Assembly: GCA_038318285.1 (NCBI GenBank)
Contig: JBBQCC010000001.1
Location: forward strand, 1 to 55,634
From: Planctomycetota bacterium
GTDB lineage: Bacteria; Planctomycetota; UBA1135; GCA-002686595
DNA length: 55,634 nucleotides
Direction: 5' to 3'
Under the pieces are notes generated by a model. It ran no database searches and was not told the DNA's origin. It saw only the letters and a list, made by a program, of their open reading frames with translations. Shown here piece by piece: positions 24,103 through 45,926 of this stretch. The position numbers were made by a program, and so were the translations under genes. The stretch's first letter is position 1; each line of letters begins with the position of its first letter.

Positions 24103-24118
24103 CGTTGGGGGTGAGGCG

Positions 24119-28290: not shown

Positions 28291-28884
28291 ATGACACAAA
28301 CTCGTCCTGCCCCGAATCCGACCCCGAAGAAGCCTGTCGCGCAAAACAGCGCCCCGAACTCCACGGGACGCCTGGAACTCGACGAGAAGGCCATCGAGGC
28401 CTCGAAGAAGTCCCTCGACGACGGCGTGGTGACGCCCACGTACGGCCCGTGGCGCGACGACGTGGTGCGCCTGCTGAACGACGCGCTCGCGACCGAGATC
28501 ACCTGTGTGCTGCGCTACCGCCGGCACTACTTCACGGTCGACGGCGTGGAGTCGCCGGCCATCAAGGCCGAGTTCCTCGTGCACGCCAACGAGGAGCTCG
28601 CGCATGCGGACGCGCTGGCCGAGCGCATCGTGCAACTCGGCGGTGAGCCCGACCTGAACCCCGCGACGCTCGGGGAACGCAGCCACGCCGACTACGACGA
28701 GTCGAGCTCCCTCAACGCGATGATCAAGTCGAACCTGATCGCCGAGCGGGTCGCGATCGAGACCTACCGCCAGATGATTCGCCTGATCGGCGACAAGGAT
28801 CCGACGACGAAGGGCGTCTTGGAAAAGGTGCTCGCCGACGAGGAAGAGCACGCCGACGAGTTGAAGGACTGGCTGCACAAGTGA
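28291..28884 (+). CDS. Ferritin-like di-iron protein (bacterioferritin/Dps superfamily) with N-terminal extension
   Basis: It has two ExxH di-iron motifs (NEELAHAD and DEEEHADE) in a four-helix-bundle-like sequence. The start is either ATG 28291 or GTG 28255. Confidence 0.8.
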   Translation: MTQTRPAPNPTPKKPVAQNSAPNSTGRLELDEKAIEASKKSLDDGVVTPTYGPWRDDVVRLLNDALATEITCVLRYRRHYFTVDGVESPAIKAEFLVHANEELAHADALAERIVQLGGEPDLNPATLGERSHADYDESSSLNAMIKSNLIAERVAIETYRQMIRLIGDKDPTTKGVLEKVLADEEEHADELKDWLHK

Positions 28885-28924: not shown

Positions 28925-31786
28925 TCAGCCGCCCTTCTCTGCCACGCGCTCGAGCACCCGATGTTCGAGTTCGGCCCACTCGGGCATATCGCGCAGGGGG
29001 TCCAGCACGCGCTCGCTCTGCAGGTCGGCGACGTCGCTGTAGCCCGCGTCGACGGCCTGCGAGAAGGTCGCGAGTGCGCGCTGCAGGCAGCGATCGGCGA
29101 CCGTGTCGCGGTCGGACTCTTCGATCTGATCCGCCTCGCGCACCGTCGCCGAAAGCATGAGCCACTTGCCCGTCAAGCGGCGCAGCGTGCGCCAGGCGAC
29201 CGGGTACATGCTCTGCGCCTTCTCGAGTGCCTCGATCGCGCGCGGGAGCGAGCCGCTGCGCGCTTCGATCTCGCAGATGCCCAGCCACCATTCGCCCATG
29301 TACTGCGCGAACTGCGGGTTCTGCGGCTCGTTCGCGCGCACGGGCTCGAGGATCTCCATCGCGCGATGGAACAGCGCGATGCCCTCGGTCGGATCGGTCG
29401 GCCCGGTCATCCCGCCCAAGTTCGCGGTCGCGATCGCCCAGGTCGCGCGCGAGCGCAGCTCGTCGGGACGCGCCTTGCACAACGCCTCCTGGCTGTTCAT
29501 CGCGTCCTTCATCAGCGCGATCGATTCGTCGTGGGTCTCCTCGTCGCCACCCAGCGCGCCCGCGAGGCTGGCACGGCAATCGTTCAGCGCCGTCGCGTAC
29601 TCGGTGTTCGAGGGGAAGTCGCGCACGAGGCCCTCGAGGATCTCGAGCGCACGTCGGAAGTGGGGGATCGATCCGCGCCGGTCGGTGAGACGCCACGTCG
29701 TCGAACCCAGGTTGATCAGTGCGTCGCCCAGCGCCGAGCGCGCTGTACTGGAGAGCGGGTCGAGCTCGAGAGAGCGTGTCTCGACGCTCACGGCTTCCTC
29801 GAGCACGGGCAGCGCCTCGTCGGGCTGGCCGCCTTCGATCAGTTGGTAGCTGAGGCTGCACAGGCTGGCGCCCAACATGAGCAGCGAGTGCGCATCGTTC
29901 GTGCGCTCCGCCTCGCGGCGAGCGAGTTCGACGCCTTCGCGCTGGCGCTTCAGGCTCTCTTCCGTGCGTCCGAGGATGAACAGCGTCGTGGCCGAGTGCG
30001 TCATCGCGTTGCGGAGCAGGCTCGTTCGCTCGCTCTCGCGCGCAGGACCGAGGTCCGCCTTCTCGATGCGGCGCACCGCTTCCTCCGTGTCTGCGAGCGA
30101 GTCCTCGTTGTGGCCGAGCTTGCGCAGAACCTGTGCGCGTCGCATGTGCGCGAGACCCGTCTGCCAGTCGAGCTCGCCCGGCCGCAGTTCGCTCGGATCG
30201 GCGGCTTCGAGCGCGTCCACGGCTTCGCCCAGCAGTGTGAGTGCTTCTTCGTTGCGACCCATCTGACGACGAATCTCACCGACGCGCGCGCGCGCGATCG
30301 CGACGCGCGCGCTGTTCATTTCCTGGCCTTCCCCGATGCGCATCAGGTCTTCGTTCAGCGTCAGCGCGTCACCGAGGATCTTCGCGCGCAGGTCTTCCAT
30401 TCCGGGCACGTTGTCCAGGTCGCGGTCCCCGACGCGCGAGAGCAGGTCCTCGATGGACTGCGCAGCGACATCGAGGCTGGATCGTGCGCGGTCGCGCTGC
30501 GCGCGCGCGTCGTCGAGCGCAGCACGGATCTCGGCGTTCGCAGCGCGCTGCTGGATCCACAGGACGGTCGGTACGCCGAGCAGCAGGAGGAGCGCGAGCG
30601 CGATCACTGCCGCGTGCGCTGGGCGTCTTTGCGCGAAGCGCGCCGCGCGGAGCAACGGGCCCGCCGGTCGAGCCTCGATCGGGCGGTGCTCCAGGACGCG
30701 CGTCAGGTCGGCGGCCAGCGCTGCCGCGCCGTCGTAACGACGCGACGGCTCGCGATCCATGGCCGTGAGGCACACGACCGCGAGGTCTCGCGGAATCGTC
30801 GGATTCAGCCGCCGCGGCGGAATTGCGCGCCCTTCGTCGATCTTCTGCAGCATCGCCGCCGTGTTGTCGGCCGCGTAGGGCAGGGCATGCGTGAGCAGCT
30901 CGTACAGCGAAGCACCCAGCGAGTAGACGTCGCTGCGCGCTCCGCTCGAAGCGGTGCCGCCGGCCACGATCTCGGGCGGCATGTACGGCATGGACCCGAG
31001 GTGCGAGCCCGATTGCGTGAGGCGTTTCGCGCCCTGGTTCGACGACAGCCCGAAGTCGACGATCATCACGCGGCCCGTGCGCGTGATCATCACGTTGCTG
31101 GGCTTCATGTCGCGGTGCAGGACGCCGCGACGGTGCGCGTGTTCGAGCGCTTCGGCGACCTCGCGCACGATGCGGGCGATGCACTCGCACCACGTGCCGT
31201 CGTACAGCGGGGACGAGCCCTCGCCGGGAAGTTGCGCGAGCAGATCGGCGCCGCTCAGCGTCGCGATGTCACGACTGCCGAGCTTCTCCAGCACGTCGCC
31301 CAGCGATGCACCGGCGACGAGTTCCATCGCGAAGTACGGGATGCCGCGTTCCTCGCCGACGACGTACACGGGCACGATGCCGGGGTGCTGCAACCGCGCC
31401 GTGGCCTCGACTTCGCGCCGGAAACGATCGCGCGCGCCCTCGAAGTACATGTGCTCGGGACGGATCAGCTTGAGCGCCACTTCGCGATCGAGCGACGTCT
31501 GACGCGCGCGGTAGACCACGCCCATCCCGCCCGAACCGAGTCGCGAGATCAGCTCGAAATCACCGAGTCGATCGGGGAAGTCCGCGCCGCTGCCGGTCGC
31601 GCTCGCCTTCGATCCGAAGCCACCGATCAGTCCCGCCGCGCGCAGCGTGCGGATGCGGCTCTGCAGCGAGGCCGCGAGTTCGGGATGCGCCGCGCACAGC
31701 GCGTCGACGGCCACGTCGCCTTCGGACTCCATGCGGTCGAGGCACTCGACGACGAGCGCTTCGACGTCAGATGAGGAGAGGCTCAT
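28925..31786 (-). CDS. Ser/Thr protein kinase with TM helix and extracytoplasmic TPR repeats (second copy)
   Basis: The Met at 31786 (MSLSSSDVEAL) gives 953 aa. It has GSGGMGVVYRARQ with VALKLIR, HRDMKPSNVMI, DFGLS and the TM segment AAVIALALLLLLGVPTVLWI, followed by TPR-like repeats. Confidence 0.9.
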   Translation of the reverse strand: MSLSSSDVEALVVECLDRMESEGDVAVDALCAAHPELAASLQSRIRTLRAAGLIGGFGSKASATGSGADFPDRLGDFELISRLGSGGMGVVYRARQTSLDREVALKLIRPEHMYFEGARDRFRREVEATARLQHPGIVPVYVVGEERGIPYFAMELVAGASLGDVLEKLGSRDIATLSGADLLAQLPGEGSSPLYDGTWCECIARIVREVAEALEHAHRRGVLHRDMKPSNVMITRTGRVMIVDFGLSSNQGAKRLTQSGSHLGSMPYMPPEIVAGGTASSGARSDVYSLGASLYELLTHALPYAADNTAAMLQKIDEGRAIPPRRLNPTIPRDLAVVCLTAMDREPSRRYDGAAALAADLTRVLEHRPIEARPAGPLLRAARFAQRRPAHAAVIALALLLLLGVPTVLWIQQRAANAEIRAALDDARAQRDRARSSLDVAAQSIEDLLSRVGDRDLDNVPGMEDLRAKILGDALTLNEDLMRIGEGQEMNSARVAIARARVGEIRRQMGRNEEALTLLGEAVDALEAADPSELRPGELDWQTGLAHMRRAQVLRKLGHNEDSLADTEEAVRRIEKADLGPARESERTSLLRNAMTHSATTLFILGRTEESLKRQREGVELARREAERTNDAHSLLMLGASLCSLSYQLIEGGQPDEALPVLEEAVSVETRSLELDPLSSTARSALGDALINLGSTTWRLTDRRGSIPHFRRALEILEGLVRDFPSNTEYATALNDCRASLAGALGGDEETHDESIALMKDAMNSQEALCKARPDELRSRATWAIATANLGGMTGPTDPTEGIALFHRAMEILEPVRANEPQNPQFAQYMGEWWLGICEIEARSGSLPRAIEALEKAQSMYPVAWRTLRRLTGKWLMLSATVREADQIEESDRDTVADRCLQRALATFSQAVDAGYSDVADLQSERVLDPLRDMPEWAELEHRVLERVAEKGG

Positions 31787-31851
31787 GCGGTTCGGTTCCT
31801 CGGCGGGTGCTCCGGCGGTGCTAGCATCCGTGCAGGCAGACGCCGATCCCG

Positions 31852-32448
31852 ATGCCCGACGATAGCGCAGAACTCGCAGAGCAGGCAGCTCGCGGTGACG
31901 CGGGTGCGATGCAATCGCTGCTCGAGCAACACCTGGACGGCTTGCGCGCATTCGTACGGCTGCGCACCGGCCCCGAACTGCGTCGGCGCGAATCCTCCTC
32001 GGACCTGGTGCAGTCCGTGTGCCGCGAGATCCTCGAGCAAGCGCACCGCTTCCAGTACCCGAGCGAGTCCGCGTTCCGCCGCTGGCTGTACACGACGGCG
32101 CTGCGCAAGATCTCCGACCGCGCCGAGCACTGGCGCGCGCAGAAGCGCGACGTCGGCCGCGAACAGGCGTTCCCGTCGCAAGGCGGCGAGGCCGGGTTGA
32201 TGCGGCGCTACGCCTCGTTCTCGAGCCCCAGTCAACACGCGATGTTGCGCGAGGAAGTTGAGCGCGTCGAACGTGCGTTCGAGCAGCTCTCGGAGGAACA
32301 GCGCGAGGTCATCACACTCGCCCACGTCGCCGGGCAGTCGCGGGCCGAGATCGCCGAGCACATGGGGCGCACGGAAGGGGCCGTGCGCGTGCTGCTGCAC
32401 CGTTCGCTGGCGCGGCTCGCGGAGATCCTGGAAACGCCGCGAACATGA
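31852..32448 (+). CDS. ECF-family RNA polymerase sigma-70 factor
   Basis: 198-aa ORF, divergent from the kinase with a 65-bp spacer. It has a region 2 (DLVQSVCREIL, RRWLYTTALRKI) and the region-4 HTH QSRAEIAEHMGRTEGAVRVLLHRSLARL. Confidence 0.88.
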   Translation: MPDDSAELAEQAARGDAGAMQSLLEQHLDGLRAFVRLRTGPELRRRESSSDLVQSVCREILEQAHRFQYPSESAFRRWLYTTALRKISDRAEHWRAQKRDVGREQAFPSQGGEAGLMRRYASFSSPSQHAMLREEVERVERAFEQLSEEQREVITLAHVAGQSRAEIAEHMGRTEGAVRVLLHRSLARLAEILETPRT

Positions 32449-34025: not shown

Positions 34026-34064
34026 GTCCGCGCGAGAGTACGGTAGTCTGGTCGCGGCCGCACG

Positions 34065-34835
34065 ATGCGCATCGTCTCCCTGTGCCCCAGCCTGACCGAG
34101 CTCGTCTTCGCCCTCGGGCGTGGTGACGAGTTGGTCGGAGTCACCGAGTGGTGCGTGCACCCCGAGGCCGGCGTCGCACGCGTCGAGAAGGTCGGCGGGA
34201 CGAAGACGCCCGACGTCGCACGCATCGTCGCTCTGGCACCTGACCTCGTGCTGATGAACGAGGAGGAGAACCGGCGCGAGGACGCGGAGGCGCTGCGCGC
34301 GGCGGGCCTCGAGTGCCACGTCTCGATGCCGCGTGATGCCGCGGAGACGGCGGACATGGTGCGTTCGATCGCGACGGCAATCGAGCGCCCGAAAGAGGGC
34401 GCGGCGATCGCACTCGACATCGAACGCCGAGTCGTCGAGGCTCGGCTCAAGGCCGACGGGAAGCCGCGCGTGCGCTTCGCGTACTTGATCTGGCGCAAGC
34501 CGTTCATGGCCGTGAACGGTGACACGTACGCCAGCTCGTTGCTCGAGCTGGCCGGCGGCGAGAACGTCTTCCACGATCGCGCGGATCGCTATCCGCTCGT
34601 CACTGCGGAGGAACTTGCCGCAGCCGCGCCCGATGCGATCCTCCTGTGCACGGAGCCATTCCCGTTCCAGGAGCGTCACGCCGACGAGTTGGCGACGTTG
34701 ACCGGGCTCGCGCGCCATCGCTTCGAGATCGTGGACGGCGAATACCTGTCGTGGCACGGCTCGCGCACACCGGCGGGCGTCGACTACGCGGCGTCGCGCA
34801 TCGAAGCGGCGCGCACGTCGATCGGCGCGGTCTGA
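34065..34835 (+). CDS. Cobalamin/metal-binding TroA-BtuF-like (helical backbone) protein, no signal peptide
   Basis: 256-aa ORF. The N-terminal RIVSLCPSLTELVFALG...LVGVT and KVGGTKTPDVARIVALAPDLVL are typical of class III periplasmic-binding-fold proteins. Confidence 0.72.
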   Translation: MRIVSLCPSLTELVFALGRGDELVGVTEWCVHPEAGVARVEKVGGTKTPDVARIVALAPDLVLMNEEENRREDAEALRAAGLECHVSMPRDAAETADMVRSIATAIERPKEGAAIALDIERRVVEARLKADGKPRVRFAYLIWRKPFMAVNGDTYASSLLELAGGENVFHDRADRYPLVTAEELAAAAPDAILLCTEPFPFQERHADELATLTGLARHRFEIVDGEYLSWHGSRTPAGVDYAASRIEAARTSIGAV

Positions 34836-34854: not shown

Positions 34855-36252
34855 TCAGCGCGGCTTGTAGCGCCAGACGATGTCCTTCGCGTCGTCGGTG
34901 CCGCCGTCGTCCACACCGTCGGGTCCGACGGACCACAAGATCACGAGCCCGCCGTCGTTGAACCCGCAGCGGATCGGCTTGCCGTCGAAGGGGTCGCTCG
35001 TCTTCGGGATGAATTCGAGCAACGCCTTCGCGTCGGTGCGGAACGCCAAGAGCGCCGTGCGCGCCAGCACGAGTCGTGCCTCGAGCTCGTCCGCCAGCGC
35101 CGTGATCGCGTCGGGCGCCGTGGCGAGTGCGCTGGAGATCGGTGCCATCACGCGGTCGAACCAGCCCGGTCTCGGCGGCGACGCGCGCCGGAACGCGGCA
35201 TCGTCCAGGCTCGCGATGCGCTGCCCCCAGGTGTCGAGGAAATAGGCCTGGTCGTACGAGATGCGCAGGCTCGCCGGCAGGAACGAGTTCGCGGGGAGCT
35301 CGCTCCGATCTCCGCCGTGACGGATCAGCTCGAACGCGCGGTTCCCGAACGCACGCTCACCGGTGGCTGCGGTGGCGAGCTGCGCACGCGGGCGCATCGC
35401 CTCGAGATCCCTCTCGAGCCACGCGAGGTCCGTGCCCGGGTCGAGACGGGGCAGCGCGAGCTCGATCATGCCCAGCAGGCTGCGCTCGGAATCGAACACG
35501 CCGAACGCGCCGACGAGGAACGGCGCGCCCTCGTAGATGTGCGCGACGTCGCGTTGTGCGCGCAGGAGATCGGGGACGCGATCGAGTCTTTCGGACCACA
35601 GGGCCTGCAAGAGTTCGAGCTGCAGCGATGCGCCGACGTCGATCGTCGACTGGATGGGAAGCGTGGGAAACGTCGCGCCGGTCGCCGTCAGGCTGTCGAC
35701 GATCACCTGCGGGTCGATGGGGCCGTAACGGCCCGCGAGCATTCCGACCTCGCCGTGTGCGGCCATGCCCATCGCGGTCAGCCGCACCGCTTCGAGCCCA
35801 CACGGCGGCGTCACCACGATGCCGTCGTGCGAGTTCAAGATGTCGAGCACGCGTTGCACGGCGGCGGCGGCGTTCGCGCTGGATCCGGCGCAAGTCTCGA
35901 GCGCGGCGAACGCTTCCTCGGCCTCACCGCCGAACTGACCTTGCGCGGACTTCTCGCGCAGGGCGCCGAACATTGCCGCATCGGTCAGGGCGACGGGATC
36001 CCAGCGCGTGCGCGCGGCTGTCGCTTGCGCGAGCCACTGCGTCGGTTCGGGACGCGGATCGGCCGGGCGTTGCAGGTCCTCGGGCAGCGACGGCGCGCCC
36101 GACGCGGTGATCGCCAGGAGCTCGTCGTTGCGCCACTTCGCTCCGGCGAAACGCAGTACGAACGCAGTGGCGAGCACGAGCAGCACGAGCCCGATCGTCA
36201 CGACGCCGACGAGTCCGAGGCGCATGGGCTTCTTCAGCGTGGACTGCTTCAT
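34855..36252 (-). CDS. N-terminally anchored hypothetical protein with pseudopilin(GspG)-like C-terminal motif; last gene of the multiheme operon
   Basis: The Met at 36252 (MKQSTLKKPMRLGLVGVVTIGLVLLVLATAFVL) gives 465 aa. The body is mostly helical. The C-terminus DPFDGKPIRC...LVILWSVGPDGVDDGGTDDAKDIVW resembles the end of type II secretion pseudopilins. Confidence 0.65.
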   Translation of the reverse strand: MKQSTLKKPMRLGLVGVVTIGLVLLVLATAFVLRFAGAKWRNDELLAITASGAPSLPEDLQRPADPRPEPTQWLAQATAARTRWDPVALTDAAMFGALREKSAQGQFGGEAEEAFAALETCAGSSANAAAAVQRVLDILNSHDGIVVTPPCGLEAVRLTAMGMAAHGEVGMLAGRYGPIDPQVIVDSLTATGATFPTLPIQSTIDVGASLQLELLQALWSERLDRVPDLLRAQRDVAHIYEGAPFLVGAFGVFDSERSLLGMIELALPRLDPGTDLAWLERDLEAMRPRAQLATAATGERAFGNRAFELIRHGGDRSELPANSFLPASLRISYDQAYFLDTWGQRIASLDDAAFRRASPPRPGWFDRVMAPISSALATAPDAITALADELEARLVLARTALLAFRTDAKALLEFIPKTSDPFDGKPIRCGFNDGGLVILWSVGPDGVDDGGTDDAKDIVWRYKPR

Positions 36253-36293: not shown

Positions 36294-37682
36294 TCAGTCG
36301 TGCACTTGTCCGTCCGGGTGGCAGTCGTAGCAGGCTGGGCTCGTGTACGAGTACCCGCGGACGCCGTTGTGGTGACCGTTCGTCTGACTCGGCGAGTGCT
36401 CGTGGCAGTTGATGCACGCGAACTGCCGGAACGAGTTCGGTGCCGGGTGGCACTCCTGACAAGAGATGTGGTTGTGGTGGCCGCTCGTGATCGGGAATTG
36501 CGGGTGCGTGAACGTCCCGTCGCCCCACGTGCGCGTCGTGTGGCAACCCTCGCACGACATGCCGATGCCGTTGCTGGCGTGCGGCGGCTGCGACGTGTTC
36601 GCGTAGTCGCTCGCGTGGCAGTCGATGCACCCCGAGGTGATGCCGGCGTGGCTGAAGTTCGCCCCCTTCCAAGTGCGGGTGGTGTGGCAATCCTCGCACG
36701 CCGTCGAGAAGTTCTGCGCGACGTGGTTCGGCGCCGTCTGGTAGTCGCTCGCGTGGCAGTCGATGCAACCCGACGTGATGCCGTTGTGGTTGAAGTGCGC
36801 GCCGCTCCAGCTGTTGATCGTGTGGCAGTCCTGGCACATCGTCGAGAAGTTCCCCGACACGTGGTTGTCGGCGCCCTGGTAGTCGCTCGCGTGGCAGGAG
36901 AAGCAGGCCGTGCTCAAGCCGCCGAAGTCCTTGCCCATGTGACAGGCCGAGCACGACAGTCCCGAGTGGCCGCCCTGCAGCGGGAAGAAACCGTGCTCGA
37001 AGCCGGCGCGCGACCAGTCGGTCGGCAGGTGGCAGCGTTGGCAACCGTCCGTCCAGCCCTGCGCGACGTGGTTCGGCTGCAGCGCGACGGCGAGGTCCTT
37101 CTGGTGGCAGTCCGCGCAGTTCGTGCTGGCCTGCACGAAGTTCCCGACCTGTGCGCCCGGGTGGCAGGCCCAACACGCCGTCGATGCGTGCGCGCCGGCG
37201 AGCGGGAAGCGCGTCGTCGCGTGCTGTGCGATCTGTGCCTTCGGGCGCCAATCGACGGCCGTCTCCTCGTGACACGTCGTGCAACCGGATCCGAGCTTGC
37301 CCTCGTGGATGTCCTCGTGACAACCGATGCAGCCGCGCTCCGAGAACCGCGCGACCGGTCCGCGGTCGTTGTGACAGCGCAGGCATTCGGCAGCCTCGTG
37401 CGCGCCGACGAGCGCGACACCCGTCTGCGCCGCGTGATCGAACTGGAAGTCGTCACGGATCGAGTGCCAGGTCTCGCCCGCGTGGCACAGCGCGCAGTCG
37501 GCCGGGAACGTGTCGTGGGGAACGACGGGGCCGCGCTCGGCCTGCCAATGCTGCGGCGGAACCGGATCCCAATCGTGTCGCGCACTGCCGTCGATCGCGC
37601 AGGCGAGCAGGCCCAGCGCCAGGGCCAGCGCCAGGATCGCAGCGTGCGCGCGCGGCATTCCGAAAAGACTTCGCGTTTGCAT
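36294..37682 (-). CDS. Multiheme c-type cytochrome lipoprotein (17 CxxCH motifs)
   Basis: The Met at 37682 is followed by a signal with lipobox-like LGLLAC. I counted 17 CxxCH motifs by hand. Three tandem ~45-aa repeats are present (C.SCHASDY...NFST.C.DCHT...W.GA.F.H.GITSG). Confidence 0.9.
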   Translation of the reverse strand: MQTRSLFGMPRAHAAILALALALGLLACAIDGSARHDWDPVPPQHWQAERGPVVPHDTFPADCALCHAGETWHSIRDDFQFDHAAQTGVALVGAHEAAECLRCHNDRGPVARFSERGCIGCHEDIHEGKLGSGCTTCHEETAVDWRPKAQIAQHATTRFPLAGAHASTACWACHPGAQVGNFVQASTNCADCHQKDLAVALQPNHVAQGWTDGCQRCHLPTDWSRAGFEHGFFPLQGGHSGLSCSACHMGKDFGGLSTACFSCHASDYQGADNHVSGNFSTMCQDCHTINSWSGAHFNHNGITSGCIDCHASDYQTAPNHVAQNFSTACEDCHTTRTWKGANFSHAGITSGCIDCHASDYANTSQPPHASNGIGMSCEGCHTTRTWGDGTFTHPQFPITSGHHNHISCQECHPAPNSFRQFACINCHEHSPSQTNGHHNGVRGYSYTSPACYDCHPDGQVHD

Positions 37683-37690
37683 GGTGGATC

Positions 37691-39364
37691 TCAGAAGCGG
37701 GTCTGGAGCCGGACGCCGAGCGTCCACGAATCGAGGTCGTCACCCATCGTGCGGTCGCCGTACACCGACAGATCCCAGCTTTCGGTCAGCGGCACGTCCA
37801 CCGATCCGAAGATCGAGTGCTGCGCGATCTGGTCGTCTGCGCCGCTGAAATCGGACTGTGTGTACCAGAACGACTGCCAGCCGAGCCCCAGGCCCGTCGT
37901 GCCGATCGTGTCGTGCAGTTGCAGACGCGCACCCGGGCCGGAGCTGTACGAGCCCTCGGCCCACTGCGCGGCGCCCGAGATCGAACTGCCACTGCCGAAC
38001 ACCTCGGACAGCGTTGCGCCGAGTTCGCCGCTGTAGCCGTTGTCGTTTTCGTCGAACCAGTTCTCGACGCGCGCATCGACGCGCACGCGCGTGCTGAGCG
38101 ACGTCCAGCCACTCAGGCCGATCCGGTCCAGCACGCTGTTTTTCACGTCGTCGGCGCGCCGCGGCAGGAATTCGTCGCGCAGCAGCTCGGGGATGCGACG
38201 TTCCAGTGCGTTGATTGCCAGTCCGCTCGTGGCCGTCGTGCGCCACGTCGCCGTGATGCGCGCTTCGGTCAGCTCGGCACCCGAGCCCTTGATCGTGTCA
38301 CTCGAATCGTAGAGGTCCACCCAAGCCGTCGCGCGCAACGAGACGCTCTCGGAAGGGCGCACCTCGGTCTGGGCGATGACGAGGTTGCGGTCCTGCTCGC
38401 CCTCGTGCCAGGTGTTCTGGTACGCGAGGCCGACCGTCGCGCGCCGCTCCGGATCGAAGGCGTAGCGGTAGTGCACCGACGCCTGCAGATCCTGGAACGA
38501 AGTGCGATCGGCGAACGGCTCCGGCATCCAGCCGAACGACACGCCAAAATCCGATCCTCCGCGTGTGCGGTGGTTCCATTCGGCGCCGTCGAGCAGTCCG
38601 AGTTCGGGCAGTCCCGCCTGCAGGAATCGGCCGAATTGGAAGTGGTTCGGTCGATCCTCGGTGCCGCCGAACTCGTACACGAACCGGTCGATGCGCACGT
38701 GCGACTGGTCGTAGTCGTACAGCCCGTCGTCGTTCGAGACGTCGCTCTGCCGGGTGAACGCCTCGACGTCGAACCGCAGCGAACCACCGTCGCCGAACGG
38801 GTTCTCGAGGCGGACGTCCGTGCCCACGGCCGCGAGTCCGTACTTGCGCGCGCCCTCGACGTCGTCCGTACCGTCGAAGCGGAACCAGGCGCGACCCGAC
38901 AAGCGCCGTTCGCGCTCCTCGGGGGCGATGCCGAACGCGGGTGCGAGCAGCGGCGTCTCGTCGTTCCAGGTCTCGGGCGGATGGGTCCACGGCGGGTGTT
39001 CGACGGCCGGAGCGGGCGTCCCCTGGACTTGTGGCGGAGTCTTCGTGCCGGGGCGCGAGTCGGGCACGATCGCTTCGCCGCGCGTGCCGACGACGGGCTT
39101 GTCCGATCCGACGTCGAGTTCGACGCGCGCGCCGTTCGTCGTGACGGACCGCACGATCCCGGTAGCGACGGTCGTGGTCTCCAGTCGGAACTCGACGCGA
39201 TCGCCTTCGGCCAGACCGCTGGACGATCCGCGATCGACGTAGACGGCCGAGCCCGCGATGCTCGTCACGCGAATCTCGACGCGCACGTCGGCGGCCGCAG
39301 CGATTCCGCACAAGAGCACGACTCCGAACACACCGTACAGCATCGACGATGCACGCGTTCCCAT
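37691..39364 (-). CDS. Outer-membrane beta-barrel protein (porin-like) with N-terminal soluble beta domain and Pro-rich linker
   Basis: The Met at 39364 overlaps the upstream stop by 1 nt (TGATG). It has a signal peptide (MLYGVFGVVLLCGIAAAADV) and amphipathic alternating segments rich in G/S/T/Y/W/D/R. The C-terminus WTLGVRLQTRF has an OMP-type terminal Phe. The product is 557 aa. Confidence 0.75.
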   Translation of the reverse strand: MGTRASSMLYGVFGVVLLCGIAAAADVRVEIRVTSIAGSAVYVDRGSSSGLAEGDRVEFRLETTTVATGIVRSVTTNGARVELDVGSDKPVVGTRGEAIVPDSRPGTKTPPQVQGTPAPAVEHPPWTHPPETWNDETPLLAPAFGIAPEERERRLSGRAWFRFDGTDDVEGARKYGLAAVGTDVRLENPFGDGGSLRFDVEAFTRQSDVSNDDGLYDYDQSHVRIDRFVYEFGGTEDRPNHFQFGRFLQAGLPELGLLDGAEWNHRTRGGSDFGVSFGWMPEPFADRTSFQDLQASVHYRYAFDPERRATVGLAYQNTWHEGEQDRNLVIAQTEVRPSESVSLRATAWVDLYDSSDTIKGSGAELTEARITATWRTTATSGLAINALERRIPELLRDEFLPRRADDVKNSVLDRIGLSGWTSLSTRVRVDARVENWFDENDNGYSGELGATLSEVFGSGSSISGAAQWAEGSYSSGPGARLQLHDTIGTTGLGLGWQSFWYTQSDFSGADDQIAQHSIFGSVDVPLTESWDLSVYGDRTMGDDLDSWTLGVRLQTRF

Positions 39365-41757
39365 CAGAACCCTCCTCGGCGCGCGACGTGGCAATCGCCG
39401 CACTCGACGCCCAGCGGCTTGTAACGGACGGCGCTGCCCCCGCCCGGGAGCGCCCAGGGCACGTGACACGCCGAACAGGCGAGTTGCGCGTGCGTGGTGT
39501 CGAGCGCGAAGCGCGCGTCGTGCTGGTGGTCGAAGCGGAGCGCGAGGAAGTCGGGCGCCGTCGCATGGCACGTCGCGCAGTCCGTCGATCCGTTTCGCGA
39601 GAACTGGCCCGCGTGCGGATCCGCGTGACAATCCGAGCAGTTCGTGCCGGCTGCGCGCGCGAAGCCGCGCGCGCCGAATGCCGTGTTGGAGGCCGCGCCG
39701 CCGCTGCGCGGGTGGCAACTCGCACAGCCCGCATCGGCGTGCACGCCCGTCAGGGCGAAACCCGTCCACGCAGCGTGGTCGAAAGCGCTCGCAGCGACCT
39801 CGGTGAACGATTCGGTCGTGTGACAGCGCGCGCACCCGGTGCGGCCGCCGACGTCGCCCGGGCGCCTCGGCCCATCGAACGCGCCCGCGTGCACATCGGT
39901 GTGACACGTCGCGCAGTTCTGGAACGAGCCTTCGCCGGCGTGGACGGTCGACCGCAGCGCGCGCTCGACACCGGCGGCGGTCGCGACCGCGCCGGAAACT
40001 TGCACGATCTCGCTGCCGCTCGGGTGACACGTCGCGCAGTCCGCTCGCGCGTGCGCGCCGTCGAGCGCGAAGCCGGTCGAGCGCGTGTGATCGAAGGCGT
40101 CGCGCGCTTGCTCGAAGCCATGCGGATCGTGGCAGGCCGTGCATGTCGGTGCATCCGGTCGCCGCGCGAAGAACCCGCCGTGCGCGTCGACGTGACACGT
40201 CGCGCAGTCCTCCGGCGACCCGGGGTAGGACTCGGCGACGACGCCGAAGCTGCGCCCGCGCTCGTCCGGTGCGGCGCGAGCGGCGTGACAGGCGGCGCAC
40301 TCGGACTCGGCGTGGGCGCCGACCAGCGCGAATCCGGTCCAGCGCGCGTGGTCGAAGGTCTCGGCGGCGACGTGCTGGAAGTCCGTCGTCGTGTGACAGG
40401 TCGCGCAGTCGTCAGCGCGCGCATTCGTGGCTGCGCTCGCGGTCGCCGCAAGACTCGCGGCCTTCTGCGCGAAGAAGCCTGTGTGCGCGTCGGCGTGGCA
40501 TGCGCTGCACGTCGCATTGGTGCCGTGGAAGACGCGCGGCGCGTCGCCGATCTGCGCGTGACACGCGCGACAGGCCGTCTTTGAGTGCGCGCCGGTCAGC
40601 GCGAACGCAGTGCGCGCGTGCTGGGCGAAGCCGAATGCCGGCGGGTCGAAGCGCTCGCGTTCGTGGCAGGCTAGGCAGCCGCCCTGCGCGAAAGCTCCCG
40701 TCTGGAACTGTCCGCCGTGCGGATCGGCGTGACAGGACGCGCAGTCGTCGGGCGTGCGCCCCGGGTGTGAGGCGCGGAAGTCGGCGAAGGCCTCTGCGTG
40801 TGCGTCCGGCGCCCTCAAGGTCGCGTGGCAGTCCGTGCAGGCGGCCGCGGCGTGCGGCGCGACGAGCGGGAAGCCGGTGAGGGCGTGCTCCGCGACGGTC
40901 AGGGTGCGCGGGCTGGCGAACGGACCGCCCGCGACCGGGTGGCAGCTCGCGCACGTCGCGCCGCGCTCGACGGCGATGCGCGCGACGATCGCGCTGATGA
41001 ACGGGGATGCGTGGGGCGATGCGTGACAGGCCTCGCAGCTGCGCGGAGTGCGCGTCGCCGTCTCGCCGCCGCCGGCCTCGATGGCGAACGCGGTGCCGGG
41101 CGCGTGACAGGCGACGCAGCTCGCCTGGGCGTGCACGCCGACGAGCGCGAACGAACTCGGGTGTTCGAACTCGGCGACGACGGCGAACGGCTCCGTCTCG
41201 CCGTGGCACGAGCGGCAGTCGGGCAACTTGCCCGCGTGCGGATCCTGGTGACAGCCCGCGCAATCCTGCGACTTGCCCGTGAAGCGCTGCGCGTCCTTTT
41301 CGAGCAGGACGACGTCGGCGTTTGCGTGACAGGCGCGGCAGGCGAGGCTCGTGTGCACGCCGCTCAGCGCGAAGCCCAGGCCCTCGTGCGCGAACGCATC
41401 GCGGTCGGCGACGCCGGCGAGCGCGAAGGCTCCTGCGCTGACCAACTCGAAGTCCACGCCATGGTGTTCTGCGTGGCACGTGCCGCAGCGCGCCACGTTG
41501 GGCAGCTTGCCGTGGAATCCAGTGCCCGCGGCGACTTGCGCCTCGACGTCCGCGTGGCACTCCGCACAGGCGGCGCGCATTTCGTCGGGCGATCCGCCAT
41601 GACACACGGCGCAGTCGTCGCCGTCGATCGAGGCCGACTTCTCGTGCACTGCGCTGATCGGGCCTGGGGACGCCGATTGCGTGTCCCACAACGCCAGCGA
41701 GATCGCCAGCAATGCCGAAGCGACCCCCAGCCAGATTCCCGCCGTGCGCGACTTCAT
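39364..41757 (-). CDS. Giant multiheme c-type cytochrome (26 CxxCH motifs; tandem c7-like tri-heme modules)
   Basis: The Met at 41757 overlaps the upstream stop (ATGA). It has an N-terminal signal/anchor (IWLGVASALLAISLAL). I counted 26 CxxCH motifs by hand. There are eight recurrences of F-x-H...F-x-L-x-G-x-H-x(4-5)-CxxCH. The product is 797 aa. Confidence 0.92.
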   Translation of the reverse strand: MKSRTAGIWLGVASALLAISLALWDTQSASPGPISAVHEKSASIDGDDCAVCHGGSPDEMRAACAECHADVEAQVAAGTGFHGKLPNVARCGTCHAEHHGVDFELVSAGAFALAGVADRDAFAHEGLGFALSGVHTSLACRACHANADVVLLEKDAQRFTGKSQDCAGCHQDPHAGKLPDCRSCHGETEPFAVVAEFEHPSSFALVGVHAQASCVACHAPGTAFAIEAGGGETATRTPRSCEACHASPHASPFISAIVARIAVERGATCASCHPVAGGPFASPRTLTVAEHALTGFPLVAPHAAAACTDCHATLRAPDAHAEAFADFRASHPGRTPDDCASCHADPHGGQFQTGAFAQGGCLACHERERFDPPAFGFAQHARTAFALTGAHSKTACRACHAQIGDAPRVFHGTNATCSACHADAHTGFFAQKAASLAATASAATNARADDCATCHTTTDFQHVAAETFDHARWTGFALVGAHAESECAACHAARAAPDERGRSFGVVAESYPGSPEDCATCHVDAHGGFFARRPDAPTCTACHDPHGFEQARDAFDHTRSTGFALDGAHARADCATCHPSGSEIVQVSGAVATAAGVERALRSTVHAGEGSFQNCATCHTDVHAGAFDGPRRPGDVGGRTGCARCHTTESFTEVAASAFDHAAWTGFALTGVHADAGCASCHPRSGGAASNTAFGARGFARAAGTNCSDCHADPHAGQFSRNGSTDCATCHATAPDFLALRFDHQHDARFALDTTHAQLACSACHVPWALPGGGSAVRYKPLGVECGDCHVARRGGF

Positions 41758-44135
41758 CCGAATAGATGCGCGTAGCGCAGCGCGAGGAAGACGTGCCAGC
41801 CGGTGATCAGGACCATGAACAGTGCCGCCCAGCGGTGGAACCAGCGCCAGGAAGCCAGGATCGTGCGCAGATCCTCGAAGTGCGCGGCCATGAGCGCCGT
41901 GCGGTGCGCCCGGCGCGCGAGCTCGGTCATGCGTGCCACATGATGGGTCGCAATGCCCTCCGCGACCGCCTGCGTGCGCAGCGCGGCGACGCGCCGACGG
42001 GCCGCGCGCTGGCTGGTCAACAGGGCGCGAATGCGGGCCCAGTACGAACCCTGCCAGCGTTCCTCCGTGACGACGCGCTCGACCTCCGCGCGCAGCTTGT
42101 CGGCGAACCCGCCGCGGCCGCGGTCCCACTCCGCCGACAGCGCGGCGAGTTGGCTGCGCACTTCGTCGAGCTCGAGCTCGCGCCCGTTCGCCGCCCGCGG
42201 CACGAACGAATAGAGGTAGCGTCCGATCGCGCCCGTCAGAACCAGGAACGCCATCGCCCACGCCGCATGACCGCCGACGGTCGATCGCGGATCCATGGCG
42301 CCGTGAACCAGGACGAGCAGCAGTGCGCCGATGCCGGTCGCGACGTGCGACGTCATCCAACCGCGCAGCGATCCCGGGATCCAGGCGAGCCGCAGATTGC
42401 GGCGCGCGAGGTACGCGAGGTTCGCCAGCACGAGGGCGGCGGCACCGAAGCCGCACGCGAGACCGATCGTGCCGGTGGGCGAGAGCAGGGCATGGTCGGG
42501 ATGGTGGGGGCGCGCGCTCGGCGCCGCGCCGTAGTAATCCGCGTGCGTCAGGACCCAGCCCAGCACCAGAACCGCGAGCCCGAGCGCGACGCACAGCGCC
42601 GGGACGAGACCCGTGCCCTGCTCGGCGAGCGGCGCCGGCTTCTCGTGCTGGCTCGGATCGAGCGATACGCCCGAGGCTTCGAGCACCTCGGTCGGCGGCG
42701 TTCCGCCCGCGAACACGAAGACCTCGTCGTTCGCCACCTGGGTCGTGCTTCCGTCCGCGAGCCGCAGCGCAACGGAGTCCTCGGCGATCGAGAGCACTTG
42801 GCTGCCGAACAGCGCCGTCAGTTGACCATCTCGCAACGCGTCCGCGACGTGCGCCTCGTTGCGCGACTTCAGGCGGAAGAACGCGTCCTTGCGGTACGAG
42901 ATCGAGACGTGATTTCCCGGCTGTTCCGCGAGGCCGAGGGCGGCTTCGACCGCGCTGTCGCCGCCGCCGACGACCAGAATTCGCCGCCCCTGGTACGAGT
43001 GCGCGTCCAGGAGCGAGTACGACACCTTGTTCAGGTCCTCGCCCGGAACGCCCAGCTTGCGCGGCGTGCCGCGTCGGCCGAGGGCGAGCACGACGCTGCG
43101 CGCGTCGAGGTGTCCCGTCAGCGTGTGGACGCGCAGGATGCCGTCGTCGAGCGTCTCGACGCGCTGGAACTGTTGGCCGCGGTGGATCGCGAGTTCGTGC
43201 TCGCGCACGACGCGTTCCCACAGCTCGATCAGCTCCTCTTTCGAGTAGCTCGTGCGCGTGAGCCGACCGACGAGCGGCAGGTCCACCGGCTGCGTCATGA
43301 CGAGCTTGCGGCGCGGGTACTTCGCGACCGTGCCGCCCAGCTCATCCTGTTCCAGCGTCGTGTACGACAGCCCGAGTTCCTTGGCCCGCAGCGAGCAGGC
43401 GATGCCCGCCGGGCCGGCGCCGACGATGACGAGGTCGAGCACATCCGATGTCTCGACTTCCGCGACCGCGACGCCGCCTCCGGCCTCCGCACGCGACGGC
43501 GTTGCATTTCCCCGGCGTCGCAGGCTGGGCGCGCTGACGAGCCGTGCGCGTCGCGCCGCCTCGTCTGCCGCTGCCGTGCCGTGCGCGATGGCGGTGCGCA
43601 CGAGCGCGTATCCCGTGACCTCGCCCGCCAGGAACAGTCCCGGCACGTGCGCGGACTCGTGGTTCTCGCGCAACACCGGCAGGTCTTTGCGATCGCTGAT
43701 GTCGCCGAGGGTGAGCGCAATCGCGCCGACCGGGCATTCCGCCGCGCAGCGTCCGTGGCCGACGCAGCGCGCGCCGTGCACGACGACCGCTTGACCGTGG
43801 ACGAGCTCGAGCACGCCCTCTTCGGGACACGCGGCGACGCAGGTGCCGCACCCGATGCAGCGCGACAGGTCGATGTGCGGATGCTGCAAGCGCGCGCGGT
43901 GACTGCCGGTCGCGCGCGCGCGATCCCGCTCCGCCAGCGTCTCGCGCAGTTGGCCCGACTCGGCTCGCCGCAGCGCGATGAGCCCGAGCGTCACGGCCAA
44001 GCCCACGACGAGGGCGATGAGTAGGATCCAGATCAAGGTGGACGCGCCGAACAAGTCCAGTGCCGAAAAGACCGTCCGCGACTTCGGTCTGCGTGGCGAC
44101 CGACTCTCCGGCCTCTTGGTTCGGCGGGGGAGCAT
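41754..44135 (-). CDS. Membrane fusion oxidoreductase: TM + 2x[4Fe-4S] ferredoxin + FAD/NAD(P)-binding (TrxR-like, no CxxC) + 5-TM domain with two H-x13-H helices
   Basis: 793-aa ORF. It has the cluster motifs CIGCGTCVAACP and CVGHGRCAAECP, and the dinucleotide motifs VIVGAGPAGIA and ILVVGGGDSAVEAAL. The C-terminal TM helices SHVATGIGALLLVLVHG and FHRWAALFMVLITGWHV each carry two His 14 residues apart. Confidence 0.85.
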   Translation of the reverse strand: MLPRRTKRPESRSPRRPKSRTVFSALDLFGASTLIWILLIALVVGLAVTLGLIALRRAESGQLRETLAERDRARATGSHRARLQHPHIDLSRCIGCGTCVAACPEEGVLELVHGQAVVVHGARCVGHGRCAAECPVGAIALTLGDISDRKDLPVLRENHESAHVPGLFLAGEVTGYALVRTAIAHGTAAADEAARRARLVSAPSLRRRGNATPSRAEAGGGVAVAEVETSDVLDLVIVGAGPAGIACSLRAKELGLSYTTLEQDELGGTVAKYPRRKLVMTQPVDLPLVGRLTRTSYSKEELIELWERVVREHELAIHRGQQFQRVETLDDGILRVHTLTGHLDARSVVLALGRRGTPRKLGVPGEDLNKVSYSLLDAHSYQGRRILVVGGGDSAVEAALGLAEQPGNHVSISYRKDAFFRLKSRNEAHVADALRDGQLTALFGSQVLSIAEDSVALRLADGSTTQVANDEVFVFAGGTPPTEVLEASGVSLDPSQHEKPAPLAEQGTGLVPALCVALGLAVLVLGWVLTHADYYGAAPSARPHHPDHALLSPTGTIGLACGFGAAALVLANLAYLARRNLRLAWIPGSLRGWMTSHVATGIGALLLVLVHGAMDPRSTVGGHAAWAMAFLVLTGAIGRYLYSFVPRAANGRELELDEVRSQLAALSAEWDRGRGGFADKLRAEVERVVTEERWQGSYWARIRALLTSQRAARRRVAALRTQAVAEGIATHHVARMTELARRAHRTALMAAHFEDLRTILASWRWFHRWAALFMVLITGWHVFLALRYAHLFG

Positions 44136-44444
44136 CGCATCCCCAAGCCTGGGAGTGCTTTAGGACGAAAGTACCATCCCGGCCTCTGAGCCGGGACGGG
44201 CGGGTCGCACCGCTGCCGAACGCGGTCTGTGCGGCGGCGCACGCCCCAGCGTCCAGATCGTGGACGTCGGCTGGTCCCGTGCATCGCTCCCGGGGATGGG
44301 AATCCGACCCCCTCGCGGACCCACGGATCCGGTTCACGATTGCATCCTCTGGGCGCCGGGTGGGGAATGTACGCGCCGCTGCCCCCTCGCCCCCAAGACG
44401 GGTCGGACAGCTCTTTCCCAACCGCTTCGCACCGAGGCTCCCTC

Positions 44445-45926
44445 ATGCATCGCACTCTGAAGCTCTCCACGTTTCTCGCACTCTCGCCGGCGCTCTTCGC
44501 TCAGGGCACGAAGCCCTACGAAGGACCCGGTCCCGTCGCCGAAGGCGGGTGCAACCCGGGCAACACCGCCAACCTGTGCGTGCCCGTCGACAGCACGCAC
44601 CAGGTCGTCGTGTTCGACGGTGTCGGCGGCAGCGGCCCGGCGAATCCGCTCGACCCGTGCCAGCGCAACGACGACGACGTCACGCTGGCGATCAACCTGC
44701 CGTTCACGTTCGACCTGTTCGGCTCGCCCCAGACGCAGGTGTTCATCAACAACAACGGGAACATCTCGTTCGGCTCGAGCTTCACCACGTTCACTTCGAC
44801 CGGCTTCCCCGTCGCCGGCTTCCCGATGATCGCGCCCTTCTGGGCCGACGTGGACACGCGCGACGGCGGGAGCGGCGTCGTCTACTACAAGATCGATGCG
44901 AACCGCCTGACGGTCACGTGGGACCACGTCGGCTACTACAGCTCCCACTCCAACCTGCTGAGCACCTTCCAGGTCATCATCAGCGACGGCACCGATCCCC
45001 TCGTGGGCCTCGGGCAAAACGTCTGCTTCTGCTACGGCGACATGGGCTGGACGACGGGCGACGCCTCGAGCGGCGTCGGCGGCTTCGGAGGCGTGCCCGC
45101 GACCGTGGGCATCAACGCCGGTGACGGCACGAACTTCTTCCAGCTCGGCCTCTTCGACCAGACGGGCAACGCCTACGACGGTCCGGGCGGCGCGAACGAC
45201 GGCGTCGACTTCCTCGACAACACGCGCCAGTGCTTCGTCACGGGCACGATCCAGAACTCGCCGCCGATCTTCATCAACAGCCCGAGCGGCTGCTTGGGCG
45301 CGTCCGTCGGCGTGCCTTTGACCTTCACCGTGCAAGCGATCGGTCCCGAGGCCGGTCAGACGGTGAACATCGTCGAGACGTCGGGCACGCCGAACGTCGT
45401 GTGCGTGCCGACGCCGGGCAACCCGGCCTCGATCCAGTGCACGTTCACGCCGAGCAGTGGCCAGACGGGCATCACGAACCTCGTGTTCGTGGCGACGGAC
45501 GACTTCATGCCGCCGGCGAGCTCGCAGCTCACCGTCTGCATCGACGCGGCCGAGTGCCACCAACTCGTCGGGCGCGGAGGCACGGGTTCGAACGTCGTGC
45601 TGTTCGGCCACGCCTTCGCAACGCACCTGACCTCGGTACGCCAGTCCTGGCCGGTCACGCTCTCGAGTCACCCGAGCCTGCGCGTGCCCCTGCTGACGAC
45701 CGGCCAACTGAACTTTTCGGTGCAGACGGTCATGTACAACCCGTCGGCATTCCCCACGAATCCCTCGCAGTGGTCCGCGCGGATGCGCCTCACCGTTCTG
45801 CCCGGCGCGATCGTGCAGGGCGAGCTGTTCGACACCTGGAACGGCATCCACCAGTCGCTCGCGACCTACCTCGACGGGAACGGCGACGCCTTCATGACCT
45901 TCCCGTTCACGATCGACGGGATGTGA
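44445..45926 (+). CDS. Secreted nidogen-like (NIDO) domain protein
   Basis: The Met at 44445 is followed by a signal peptide (MHRTLKLSTFLALSPALFAQG). The segment LPFTFDLFG...VFINNNGNISFG...IAPFWADVDTR...VYY matches the NIDO-domain pattern. The product is 493 aa. Confidence 0.72.
   Translation: MHRTLKLSTFLALSPALFAQGTKPYEGPGPVAEGGCNPGNTANLCVPVDSTHQVVVFDGVGGSGPANPLDPCQRNDDDVTLAINLPFTFDLFGSPQTQVFINNNGNISFGSSFTTFTSTGFPVAGFPMIAPFWADVDTRDGGSGVVYYKIDANRLTVTWDHVGYYSSHSNLLSTFQVIISDGTDPLVGLGQNVCFCYGDMGWTTGDASSGVGGFGGVPATVGINAGDGTNFFQLGLFDQTGNAYDGPGGANDGVDFLDNTRQCFVTGTIQNSPPIFINSPSGCLGASVGVPLTFTVQAIGPEAGQTVNIVETSGTPNVVCVPTPGNPASIQCTFTPSSGQTGITNLVFVATDDFMPPASSQLTVCIDAAECHQLVGRGGTGSNVVLFGHAFATHLTSVRQSWPVTLSSHPSLRVPLLTTGQLNFSVQTVMYNPSAFPTNPSQWSARMRLTVLPGAIVQGELFDTWNGIHQSLATYLDGNGDAFMTFPFTIDGM

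Follow-up and report, generated by a model that had tools for sequence, protein, structure and literature searches.

A membrane-bound flavo-iron-sulfur fusion with four invariant histidines as a candidate NAD(P)H-fed entry to a porin-cytochrome conduit in Planctomycetota

What is the task of a membrane protein that carries a ferredoxin domain, a flavoprotein and a helical domain with four conserved histidines, and whose gene overlaps that of a 26-haem cytochrome? The question is raised by an open reading frame (ORF) at 41754..44135 on the reverse strand of contig JBBQCC010000001.1 (assembly GCA_038318285.1, Planctomycetota bacterium), of which we analysed positions 1 to 55,634, a stretch of 55,634 nucleotides referred to below as the window. 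Read from its first ATG, the ORF encodes 793 amino acids (aa) that make up, from the N to the C terminus, a membrane anchor, a di-cluster ferredoxin domain, a flavoprotein of the YpdA/thioredoxin reductase (TrxR) type binding flavin adenine dinucleotide (FAD), and a membrane domain of five helices. On balance, we lean toward the view that this fusion ORF encodes an input module in the inner membrane, through which NAD(P)H feeds electrons into a porin-cytochrome conduit. A preliminary description of this DNA had read the ORF as a fusion of this kind, and the architecture was borne out, as the ORF, the quoted motifs, the Pfam domains and the AlphaFold2 helices were all recovered. The frame has a GC content at third codon positions of 0.87, as true genes have, in a genome of 69% GC, and a 752-aa ORF on the opposite strand (41766..44024) failed the codon-position filter and was rejected as a shadow ORF. 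The features of the fusion ORF are:

43971..44033, reverse strand: N-terminal membrane anchor, residues 35-55 (AlphaFold2 helix 31-75)
43716..43883, reverse strand: di-cluster ferredoxin domain, residues 85-140 (Pfam Fer4_10/Fer4_7 and related models)
43536..43673, reverse strand: displaced C-terminal FAD element, residues ~155-200, PGLFLAGEVTG and a helix (Pfam GIDA, YpdA alignment)
42648..43442, reverse strand: FAD and NAD(P)H binding domains of the YpdA/TrxR type, residues 232-496 (Pyr_redox_3, YpdA model, Foldseek)
41757..42617, reverse strand: five-helix membrane domain, putative di-haem b module, residues 507-793 (AlphaFold2, family alignments)
42303..42368, reverse strand: helix 3, W593-x3-H597-x13-H611 with the invariant G601 (alignments)
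42204..42278, reverse strand: helix 4, residues 620-644, with T634-G-A-I-G638-R639, that is (S/T)GxxG (alignments)
41880..42200, reverse strand: Arg-rich helical cytoplasmic insert, residues 646-752, starting PRAANGRE (AlphaFold2 helices 649-751)
41772..41879, reverse strand: helix 5, W763-R-W-F-H767-R-W...H781 (alignments)

The membrane domain carries most of the argument. AlphaFold2 recovers the five hydrophobic helices that had been noted at the C terminus (residues 510-530, 556-579, 590-611, 620-644 and 753-788); the mean predicted local distance difference test (pLDDT) score of the full-length model, built from 39 orthologues, was 75, and the membrane domain modelled alone reached a pLDDT of 88.8. 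As first described, two His stand 14 positions apart in each of helices 3 and 5, H597/H611 and H767/H781. Their conservation was followed in three alignments: 39 full-length orthologues with 54-85% identity (A1), 42 stand-alone relatives of ~290 aa with 24-36% identity (A2), and 27 longer relatives of 330-650 aa (A3), the 69 distant relatives of the latter two sets spanning 24-43% identity. All four His are invariant in all 39, all 42 and all 27 sequences, and thus down to 24% identity. W593 and W763, each four residues before a His, are invariant in A1, A2 and A3. G601, G635, G638, R639 and R578 are invariant too; in domain numbering, G136, G139 and R140 are invariant in the 42 stand-alone relatives. 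The first position of (S/T)GxxG is Thr in 65 and Ser in 6 of 71 species-level orthologues, with both Gly invariant. The invariant Gly thus lie on helices 3 and 4, and the Arg at cytoplasmic helix ends. Within the insert, P646, A648, A649, N650, G651 and E653 are invariant in the 39 orthologues, and two further His, H752 and H623, are kept in close orthologues only. Two H-x13-H pairs on parallel helices are the classic pattern of di-haem b proteins, and by this pattern we infer that the four His bind two b haems.

The orientation of the N-terminal helix had been left open. The sequence MxWxLL opens the protein in thirty-odd of the 39 orthologues, two residues ahead of the first hydrophobic helix, and an in-frame TTG at 44036 (44034-44036, reverse strand, codon 34) coincides with this start. 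Translation from the TTG gives 760 aa, and the closest relatives have 756-761 aa. This codon is probably the true start of the fusion gene, in which case the first 33 Arg/Lys-rich residues are not translated; with that leader gone the anchor reads N-out, RR-in, which puts the Fe-S domain in the cytoplasm and resolves the earlier ambiguity. Past the anchor and the RR, the chain continues in the cytoplasm as a long helix rich in Arg. Counted from the TTG start, Lys plus Arg residues number 8 after the anchor, 4 in the loop between helices 2 and 3 and 20 in the insert between helices 4 and 5, all segments predicted to be cytoplasmic, against 1 in the first periplasmic loop, 1 in the second and 0 in the C-terminal tail, predicted to be periplasmic. 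These charges fit a cytoplasmic flavin domain, as had been claimed, and by the charge rule the Fe-S and flavin domains are both cytoplasmic. In this topology helices 3 and 5 both cross the membrane in the outward direction, so that H597/H767 would lie near the cytoplasmic face and H611/H781 near the periplasmic face, which agrees with the earlier assignment of one His pair to each side of the membrane.

The genes that follow suggest where electrons leaving the membrane domain would go:

39364..41757, reverse strand: 797-aa cytochrome c, 26 CxxCH, signal or anchor at the N terminus (Pfam Cytochrome_C7, MtrC/MtrF domain II/IV, Cytochrom_CIII)
37691..39364, reverse strand: 557-aa secreted protein, putative outer-membrane beta-barrel (signal peptide AAA/AD, end ...LQTRF)
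36294..37682, reverse strand: 462-aa cytochrome c with 17 CxxCH and lipobox LGLLAC, putative cell-surface protein (motif counts)

The ATG of the 26-haem cytochrome gene overlaps the stop codon of the fusion (ATGA, 41757), the gene of the 557-aa protein overlaps the cytochrome gene by 1 nucleotide, and the 17-haem cytochrome gene begins 8 bases beyond it. The 557-aa protein had no match in Pfam, NCBIfam or the PDB; it is weakly homologous to proteins encoded at the same position in clusters where the fusion is split (E 4e-11 and 8e-12), and its size, signal, C-terminal Phe and gene position suggest a beta-barrel. The lipobox of the 17-haem cytochrome is as in the surface lipoprotein cytochromes MtrC and OmcA.

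The fusion had been called unusual, a claim that did not hold: scanning one GTDB genome per species returned 256 loci encoding a relative, a common family of Planctomycetota. The best 80 of the 256 loci are all from this phylum, including the cultured Rohdeia mirabilis Pla163 (NZ_CP036290.1, ~535.5-538.0 kb); the scan was run with a closer alignment (A4), which biases these 80 toward Planctomycetota. Within the best 80, to which the following counts refer, 76 loci contain an ORF with the four-His motifs (4-His ORF), which in 70 of them also bears the motifs of the Fe-S domain and the flavoprotein. A multihaem ORF follows directly in 64 of the 66 loci that have at least 2.5 kb of downstream sequence, its first CxxCH ~145 nucleotides past the fusion stop, and together with the ATGA overlap this upholds the coupling to a co-translated 26-haem cytochrome proposed at the outset. 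In 38 loci this downstream cytochrome has 26 haems, and in another 22 it has 23 (60/66). In most loci it is followed by a haem-free ORF of ~1.7 kb and then, at ~+4.1 kb, by a second multihaem ORF with 7-38 haems.

Fused and split forms occur side by side in this family, whose membrane domain is found in 1108 representative clusters (E <= 1e-3), fused, stand-alone (270-300 aa) or with a disordered N-terminal tail. The split forms were followed in seven stand-alone 4-His proteins with readable contigs. In four of them (L005, L088, L089 and L004) a flavoprotein gene lies directly upstream and overlaps the 4-His gene; its product corresponds to fusion residues ~30-500 with 44-49% identity and includes the anchor, and the cytochromes and the barrel homologue are encoded downstream. 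The anchor is thus retained on the separate flavoprotein, as in the L089 protein beginning MFYSIAILFIAVLLLL. In L091 (8001-14824) and L092 (4597-11422) the 4-His gene comes first, followed by two cytochrome genes, the barrel gene and, at the far end, the Fer4/flavoprotein gene. The seventh locus, L090 (9107-16915, Ca. Eisenbacteria), has a stand-alone 4-His gene followed by three cytochrome genes, the last encoding >1571 aa, and no flavoprotein gene within the 8 kb read. Since the split genes share a cluster in six of the seven readable loci, the flavoprotein/Fe-S unit and the 4-His unit are partners across phyla that are joined in Planctomycetota. Database annotations of the family read only 'NAD(P)-binding domain-containing protein', 'thioredoxin reductase' or 'hypothetical protein'. 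An 838-aa protein (P0121) that looked like a fusion of membrane domain and cytochrome was rejected as a frameshifted read-through of two adjacent genes; one of its WX3HX13H motifs is lost and out-of-frame sequence follows it. The 4-His relatives of 380-650 aa (P0170, P0181, P0185 and P0212; L005:3311-4660) have long disordered, acidic or Pro-rich N-terminal tails, low-complexity sequence in which no redox domain was found. A short motif, (V/I)(I/V)(L/M)P(D/E), recurs in these tails and is possibly a peptide by which they dock onto the separate flavoprotein.

The central part of the fusion is matched by Pfam Pyr_redox_3 at residues 236-496 (E 4e-45), with dinucleotide-binding motifs at residues 236-246 (VIVGAGPAGIA) and 386-400 (ILVVGGGDSAVEAAL). 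C247 is the sole Cys between the two motifs, and no CxxC was found in the flavoprotein region among the 71 orthologues, confirming that a redox-active CxxC is missing between the motifs. The best NCBIfam model was YpdA (TIGR04018) at 162 bits, under its cut-off of 339.9, and thioredoxin reductase (TIGR01292) came second at 78.6 bits, with its cut-off of 343 not reached. Foldseek comparison of the full-length model with the PDB gave YpdA/Bdr (7apr) as the top match (E 8e-18), followed by the TrxR-type ferredoxin:NADP reductases (FNRs) 6gar, 3ab1 and 3lzw, all confined to the flavoprotein part. With YpdA as the best model, TrxR-type FNR folds and no CxxC, the domain is FNR/YpdA-like and not a true thioredoxin reductase, as first suggested. 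The Cys of the GGGPCG motif is important for YpdA function. Here the motif reads GAGPAG, with Ala in place of Cys in 71 of 71 orthologues, and because of this replacement and of the score of 162 against 339.9 bits the flavoprotein, by these measures, is not a YpdA orthologue either.

One correction to the preliminary description concerns the FAD domain, which, judged by the order of its motifs, is circularly permuted, since the FAD "GD" element sits before the first GxGxxG. Pfam GIDA aligns residues 155-197 with profile positions 345-387 of 391. The YpdA alignment spans only positions 6-271 of the 326 of YpdA, and residues 157-196 pair weakly with YpdA 285-324, a piece that is not significant alone. 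A GD motif lies ahead of GxGPAG in 64 of 71 orthologues, and a disordered linker (residues 204-229) separates the displaced FAD element from the first Rossmann motif. The permutation attaches the ferredoxin domain straight onto the FAD-binding element. As for the donor, the segment S413-Y-R-K...R421, which comes after GGGDS, resembles the HRRxxxR of Escherichia coli TrxR, and by this analogy NADPH would be more likely than NADH.

The ferredoxin domain departs from what had been reported in one of its two 4Fe-4S motifs. Motif 1, CIGCGTCVAACP (residues 93-104), is canonical as claimed (C93-x2-C96-x2-C99-x3-C103-P). Motif 2, CVGHGRCAAECP (residues 124-135; 43731-43766, reverse strand), had been misread as canonical and is CxxHxxCxxxCP (C124-x2-H127-x2-C130-x3-C134-P). 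H127 is invariant in 39 of 39 close orthologues; across the 71 species-level orthologues the position is occupied by His in 63, Ile in 5, Val in 2 and Ala in 1, and the split L089 homologue likewise carries His in this motif (CIGHGACERACP). The motif suggests that cluster II is a His-ligated [4Fe-4S] or a [3Fe-4S] cluster. Because Ile, Val or Ala at position 127 cannot act as ligand, [3Fe-4S] is favoured in at least some members.

In the mechanism that we propose, the cytoplasmic TrxR-fold flavoprotein, of the ferredoxin:NADP reductase kind, would move hydride from NAD(P)H to FAD, and single electrons would pass to the covalently joined two-cluster ferredoxin domain, which presumably stands between FAD and the inner haem. 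From there they would reach a haem b on H597/H767 on the side of the cytoplasmic face, then a second haem b on H611/H781 on the side of the periplasmic face, and then the first haems of the co-translated 26-haem cytochrome, which would pass them through the 557-aa outer-membrane barrel to the 17-haem surface lipoprotein. Such a chain would bypass the quinone pool and build no membrane potential, and could let surplus reducing power drain to acceptors such as Fe(III) or humics. Both the membrane potential and the redox potentials favour flow in the outward direction. Such flow would use up membrane potential, as in NADPH oxidases, which makes disposal of reducing equivalents the likely role. 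A wire from NAD(P)H through FAD and Fe-S to an inner and an outer haem b had been proposed before; its parts, their conservation and their linkage are supported by the present analysis, and haem binding, the order of the cofactors, the donor, the direction of flow, the barrel fold and the acceptor outside the cell are what we infer.

The family resemblances of the membrane domain are all to haem-b proteins. The window domain scored below the gathering score with both Ferric_reduct (PF01794; E 0.014, 15.9 bits, gathering score 28) and DUF4405 (PF14358; E 0.015, 16.2 bits, gathering score 26.7), and by these scores is a member of neither family. Among 43 family members, DUF4405 was matched by 32 (best 4.4e-8), Ferric_reduct by 13 and Ni_hydr_CYTB by 13. 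Two of ten relatives passed the DUF4405 gathering score (34.0 and 27.9 bits), at profile positions 40-64 of 66 only; the best Ferric_reduct score among ten individually listed relatives was 22.5 bits, with E values of 1e-4 to 1e-5 in two alignment scans. The preliminary reading of the domain as a redox module would have been undone by a match to a known non-redox family; none was matched, only DUF4405, Ferric_reduct and Ni_hydr_CYTB. Judged by their extent, the Pfam matches are a common haem-helix motif and not whole-domain homology. A purified DUF4405 protein has been shown to bind haem b, with four central His in the arrangement seen in MsrQ and in cytochromes of the PepSY type (Huang et al. 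2024, PMC11334425). The window domain is like DUF4405 in having four central His on transmembrane helices and differs in that DUF4405 proteins are described as having six helices and as belonging to flavinylation (ApbE) clusters rather than to those of multihaem cytochromes.

Several points weigh against the proposed mechanism. Unless the cluster potentials are raised, electrons would have to move slightly uphill from NAD(P)H to a ferredoxin cluster of low potential, and the membrane domain may contain a quinone site. The Pfam similarity is limited to the last helix, ~25 residues with W-R-x-x-H-R-W...H, and the window protein is below threshold. Foldseek comparison of the membrane-domain model with the PDB gave no match at E <= 0.001; the best was an unrelated helical domain (E 0.32), helical bundles of chemoreceptors and F-BAR proteins led the list, and STEAP1 (6y9b) ranked 36th (E 2.6), a result in which the long helical insert may hide a match of the core fold. 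The A2 profile, run against PDB sequences, found only designed coiled coils, matched to the cytoplasmic insert. Two fused loci, L049 and L066, have no downstream multihaem ORF; possibly these fused genes are paralogues with another partner. Finally, experiments on any member of the 4-His family were not found in the literature searched. L066 and L026 come from the same metagenome-assembled genome (MAG), and L026 does have cytochromes.

The membrane module itself has been described before. In the putative PCC3 and PCC4 clusters, next to a porin and to cytochromes very rich in haem, He et al. (2017) reported an inner membrane protein of ~300 aa. Of its five helices, the third and the fifth each bear WX3HX13H and the fourth bears SGXXG; comparing it with the ferric reductase domain, they proposed, on bioinformatic grounds, a di-haem, quinone-active cytochrome b (PMC5566968). 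In PCC3 the periplasmic cytochrome has 21-27 haems and the extracellular one 10-35 (Hoover et al. 2023, PMC10734462). The window domain has the five helices, both WX3HX13H motifs and (S/T)GXXG, with T634 in first position, and its cluster encodes a porin candidate with 26- and 17-haem cytochromes; it matches the PCC3/PCC4 pattern on every feature of the published description. The published clusters differ in being mostly proteobacterial and in their proposed link to the quinone pool, and PCC4 subgroup II has another Fe-S gene (pfam13247). No named proteobacterial protein was among the best 120 profile-search matches, obtained without a published PCC3/PCC4 sequence as query. An NAD(P)H flavoprotein partner is unreported in PMC5566968, where thioredoxin, FAD and pyridine nucleotide are not mentioned, and no report linking a 4-His protein to a Fer4/TrxR-like flavoprotein was found in the literature searched. 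Two candidate descriptions of the fusion, a peat 'EET1-4' preprint and a paper on Verrucomicrobia porin-cytochromes, were set aside as concerning other systems. The 4-His membrane module is thus already known, and its fusion or pairing with a flavo-Fe-S unit, like the implied quinone-independent entry into a porin-cytochrome conduit, appears to be unreported in the literature searched.

The quinone-active cytochrome b that He et al. proposed for the same motif set (PMC5566968) is the alternative that survives best, although we consider it unlikely. Here the 4-His domain would exchange electrons with menaquinone and the cytochrome chain would be entered through quinol, with the flavo/Fe-S part acting like the arm of a di-haem succinate:quinone reductase or like an NDH-2-type NAD(P)H:quinone reductase. 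A flavoprotein with Fe-S clusters and a di-haem five-helix anchor does recall the type B succinate:quinone reductases, and the weak matches include Ni_hydr_CYTB, a quinone-reactive family. However, a quinone-site motif was not identified in the membrane domain, the matches to haem-b families span the His-bearing helix only, and the covalent fusion together with the translational coupling to the cytochrome makes a whole chain without a diffusible carrier.

Inward flow, in which electrons from extracellular Fe(II) or a cathode would pass through the cytochromes to reduce NAD(P)+ or the ferredoxin domain, is in our view improbable. PCC3 clusters do occur in Fe(II) oxidisers, for which electron uptake was proposed (PMC5566968, PMC10734462), and multihaem conduits are reversible in principle. 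Electrons moving in this direction would nevertheless cross two haems against the membrane potential and face a gap of several hundred mV to NAD(P)+, with no coupling device visible; besides, the window genes are of heterotroph type (beta-oxidation, methylmalonyl-CoA mutase, a GH38-like protein), and no carbon-fixation genes were seen among them. That the four His bind one haem or a metal site, or are structural, in a membrane-tethered NAD(P)H oxidoreductase whose cytochrome link is regulatory or concerns maturation, has equally little chance: direct haem evidence and a significant structural match are absent for the family, but two H-x13-H pairs, parallel helices, packing Gly and flanking Arg form the classic di-haem b pattern, and the only resemblances are to haem-b families, one of them (DUF4405) with experimental confirmation.

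Several known systems resemble the proposed NAD(P)H-fed module in part. By analogy, its closest functional counterparts are the NOX/FRE flavocytochromes. In NOX/FRE/FRO, bacterial NOX5, SpNOX and MsrQ (PF01794), electrons likewise go from cytoplasmic NAD(P)H to flavin, inner haem b, outer haem b and an acceptor on the far side, and the third and fifth helices carry the bis-His pairs at a spacing of 13 residues, along with an FHRW-type motif (in part PMC5566968). In contrast to these proteins, the window dehydrogenase is a two-Rossmann TrxR/YpdA-type unit ahead of the membrane domain and not an FNR-type unit behind it; two Fe-S clusters are interposed, the helices are five and not six, and the acceptor would be a multihaem cytochrome, not O2 or an Fe(III) chelate. 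YpdA/Bdr and the TrxR-type ferredoxin:NADP reductases share the FAD/NADPH fold and the lack of CxxC, whereas the window flavoprotein has GAGPAG and a permuted FAD element and is fused to a ferredoxin domain, an anchor and a membrane domain. With MtrCAB the cluster shares the set of a multihaem cytochrome in the periplasm, a barrel and a lipoprotein cytochrome at the surface, together with the Pfam MtrC/MtrF and DmsE/MtrA matches; it differs in its haem counts (26 and 17 against 10 and 10), in a barrel candidate without detectable similarity to MtrB, and in an inner-membrane partner that is not a quinol dehydrogenase such as CymA.

We can only tentatively, and with somewhat less confidence than for the input module as such, suggest a broader reading, which is possible: a quinone-independent entry to extracellular electron transfer in which one polypeptide with FAD, two Fe-S clusters and two b haems would link cytoplasmic NAD(P)H directly with a 26-haem cytochrome and, through it, with a barrel and a cytochrome at the surface. 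In other phyla the unit would be a complex of two proteins; it would be widespread in Planctomycetota, and would amount to a bacterial counterpart of NADPH oxidases and ferric reductases in which a permuted TrxR-type FNR with a ferredoxin replaces the FNR-type domain.

The surroundings of the operon are those of an ordinary chromosome, as its flanks (LytB, an M64 peptidase, a GH38-like protein, a periplasmic binding protein and DinB) are syntenic with a related MAG. With this synteny and even GC in the window, a mobile or horizontally acquired island was rejected. Past the operon, after a gap of 42 nucleotides, a gene (34855-36252, reverse strand) encodes a protein of 465 aa that carries a membrane anchor at its N terminus and matches no family; a 456-aa protein without Pfam match occupies the equivalent place in L001, and none does in L002. 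A Peripla_BP_2 periplasmic binding protein of the iron, haem or B12 type (34047-34832, forward strand) adjoins the operon in L001 too, and a ferritin-like protein (28213-28881, forward strand) is encoded near it. The product of the divergent gene at 44229-45926 (forward strand) is secreted and has a Nidogen-like (NIDO) domain, an unusual feature for a bacterial protein. Two large proteins combining a Ser/Thr kinase with TPR are encoded at 20953-24814 and 28928-32308 (both reverse strand), one of these genes directly downstream of a Planctomycete-type extracytoplasmic function (ECF) sigma factor (PF07638).

To our knowledge, the characterised inner-membrane entry points of extracellular electron transfer all take their electrons from the quinone pool: CymA, ImcH, CbcL and the Cbc complexes, and in Gram-positive bacteria Ndh2, demethylmenaquinone (DMK) and EetAB. 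Should the NAD(P)H-fed reading be true, a conduit that takes its electrons straight from NAD(P)H would solve the task in another way. Because Rohdeia mirabilis Pla163 is a cultured carrier, the idea is directly testable. The reading would give the uncharacterised 4-His membrane protein of PCC3/PCC4-type clusters a concrete function, and its partner in non-proteobacterial clusters would be a cytoplasmic dehydrogenase and not quinol. For the organisms, the system would be a redox valve that conserves no energy, through which fermentative or microaerobic heterotrophs would shed electrons onto minerals or humics.

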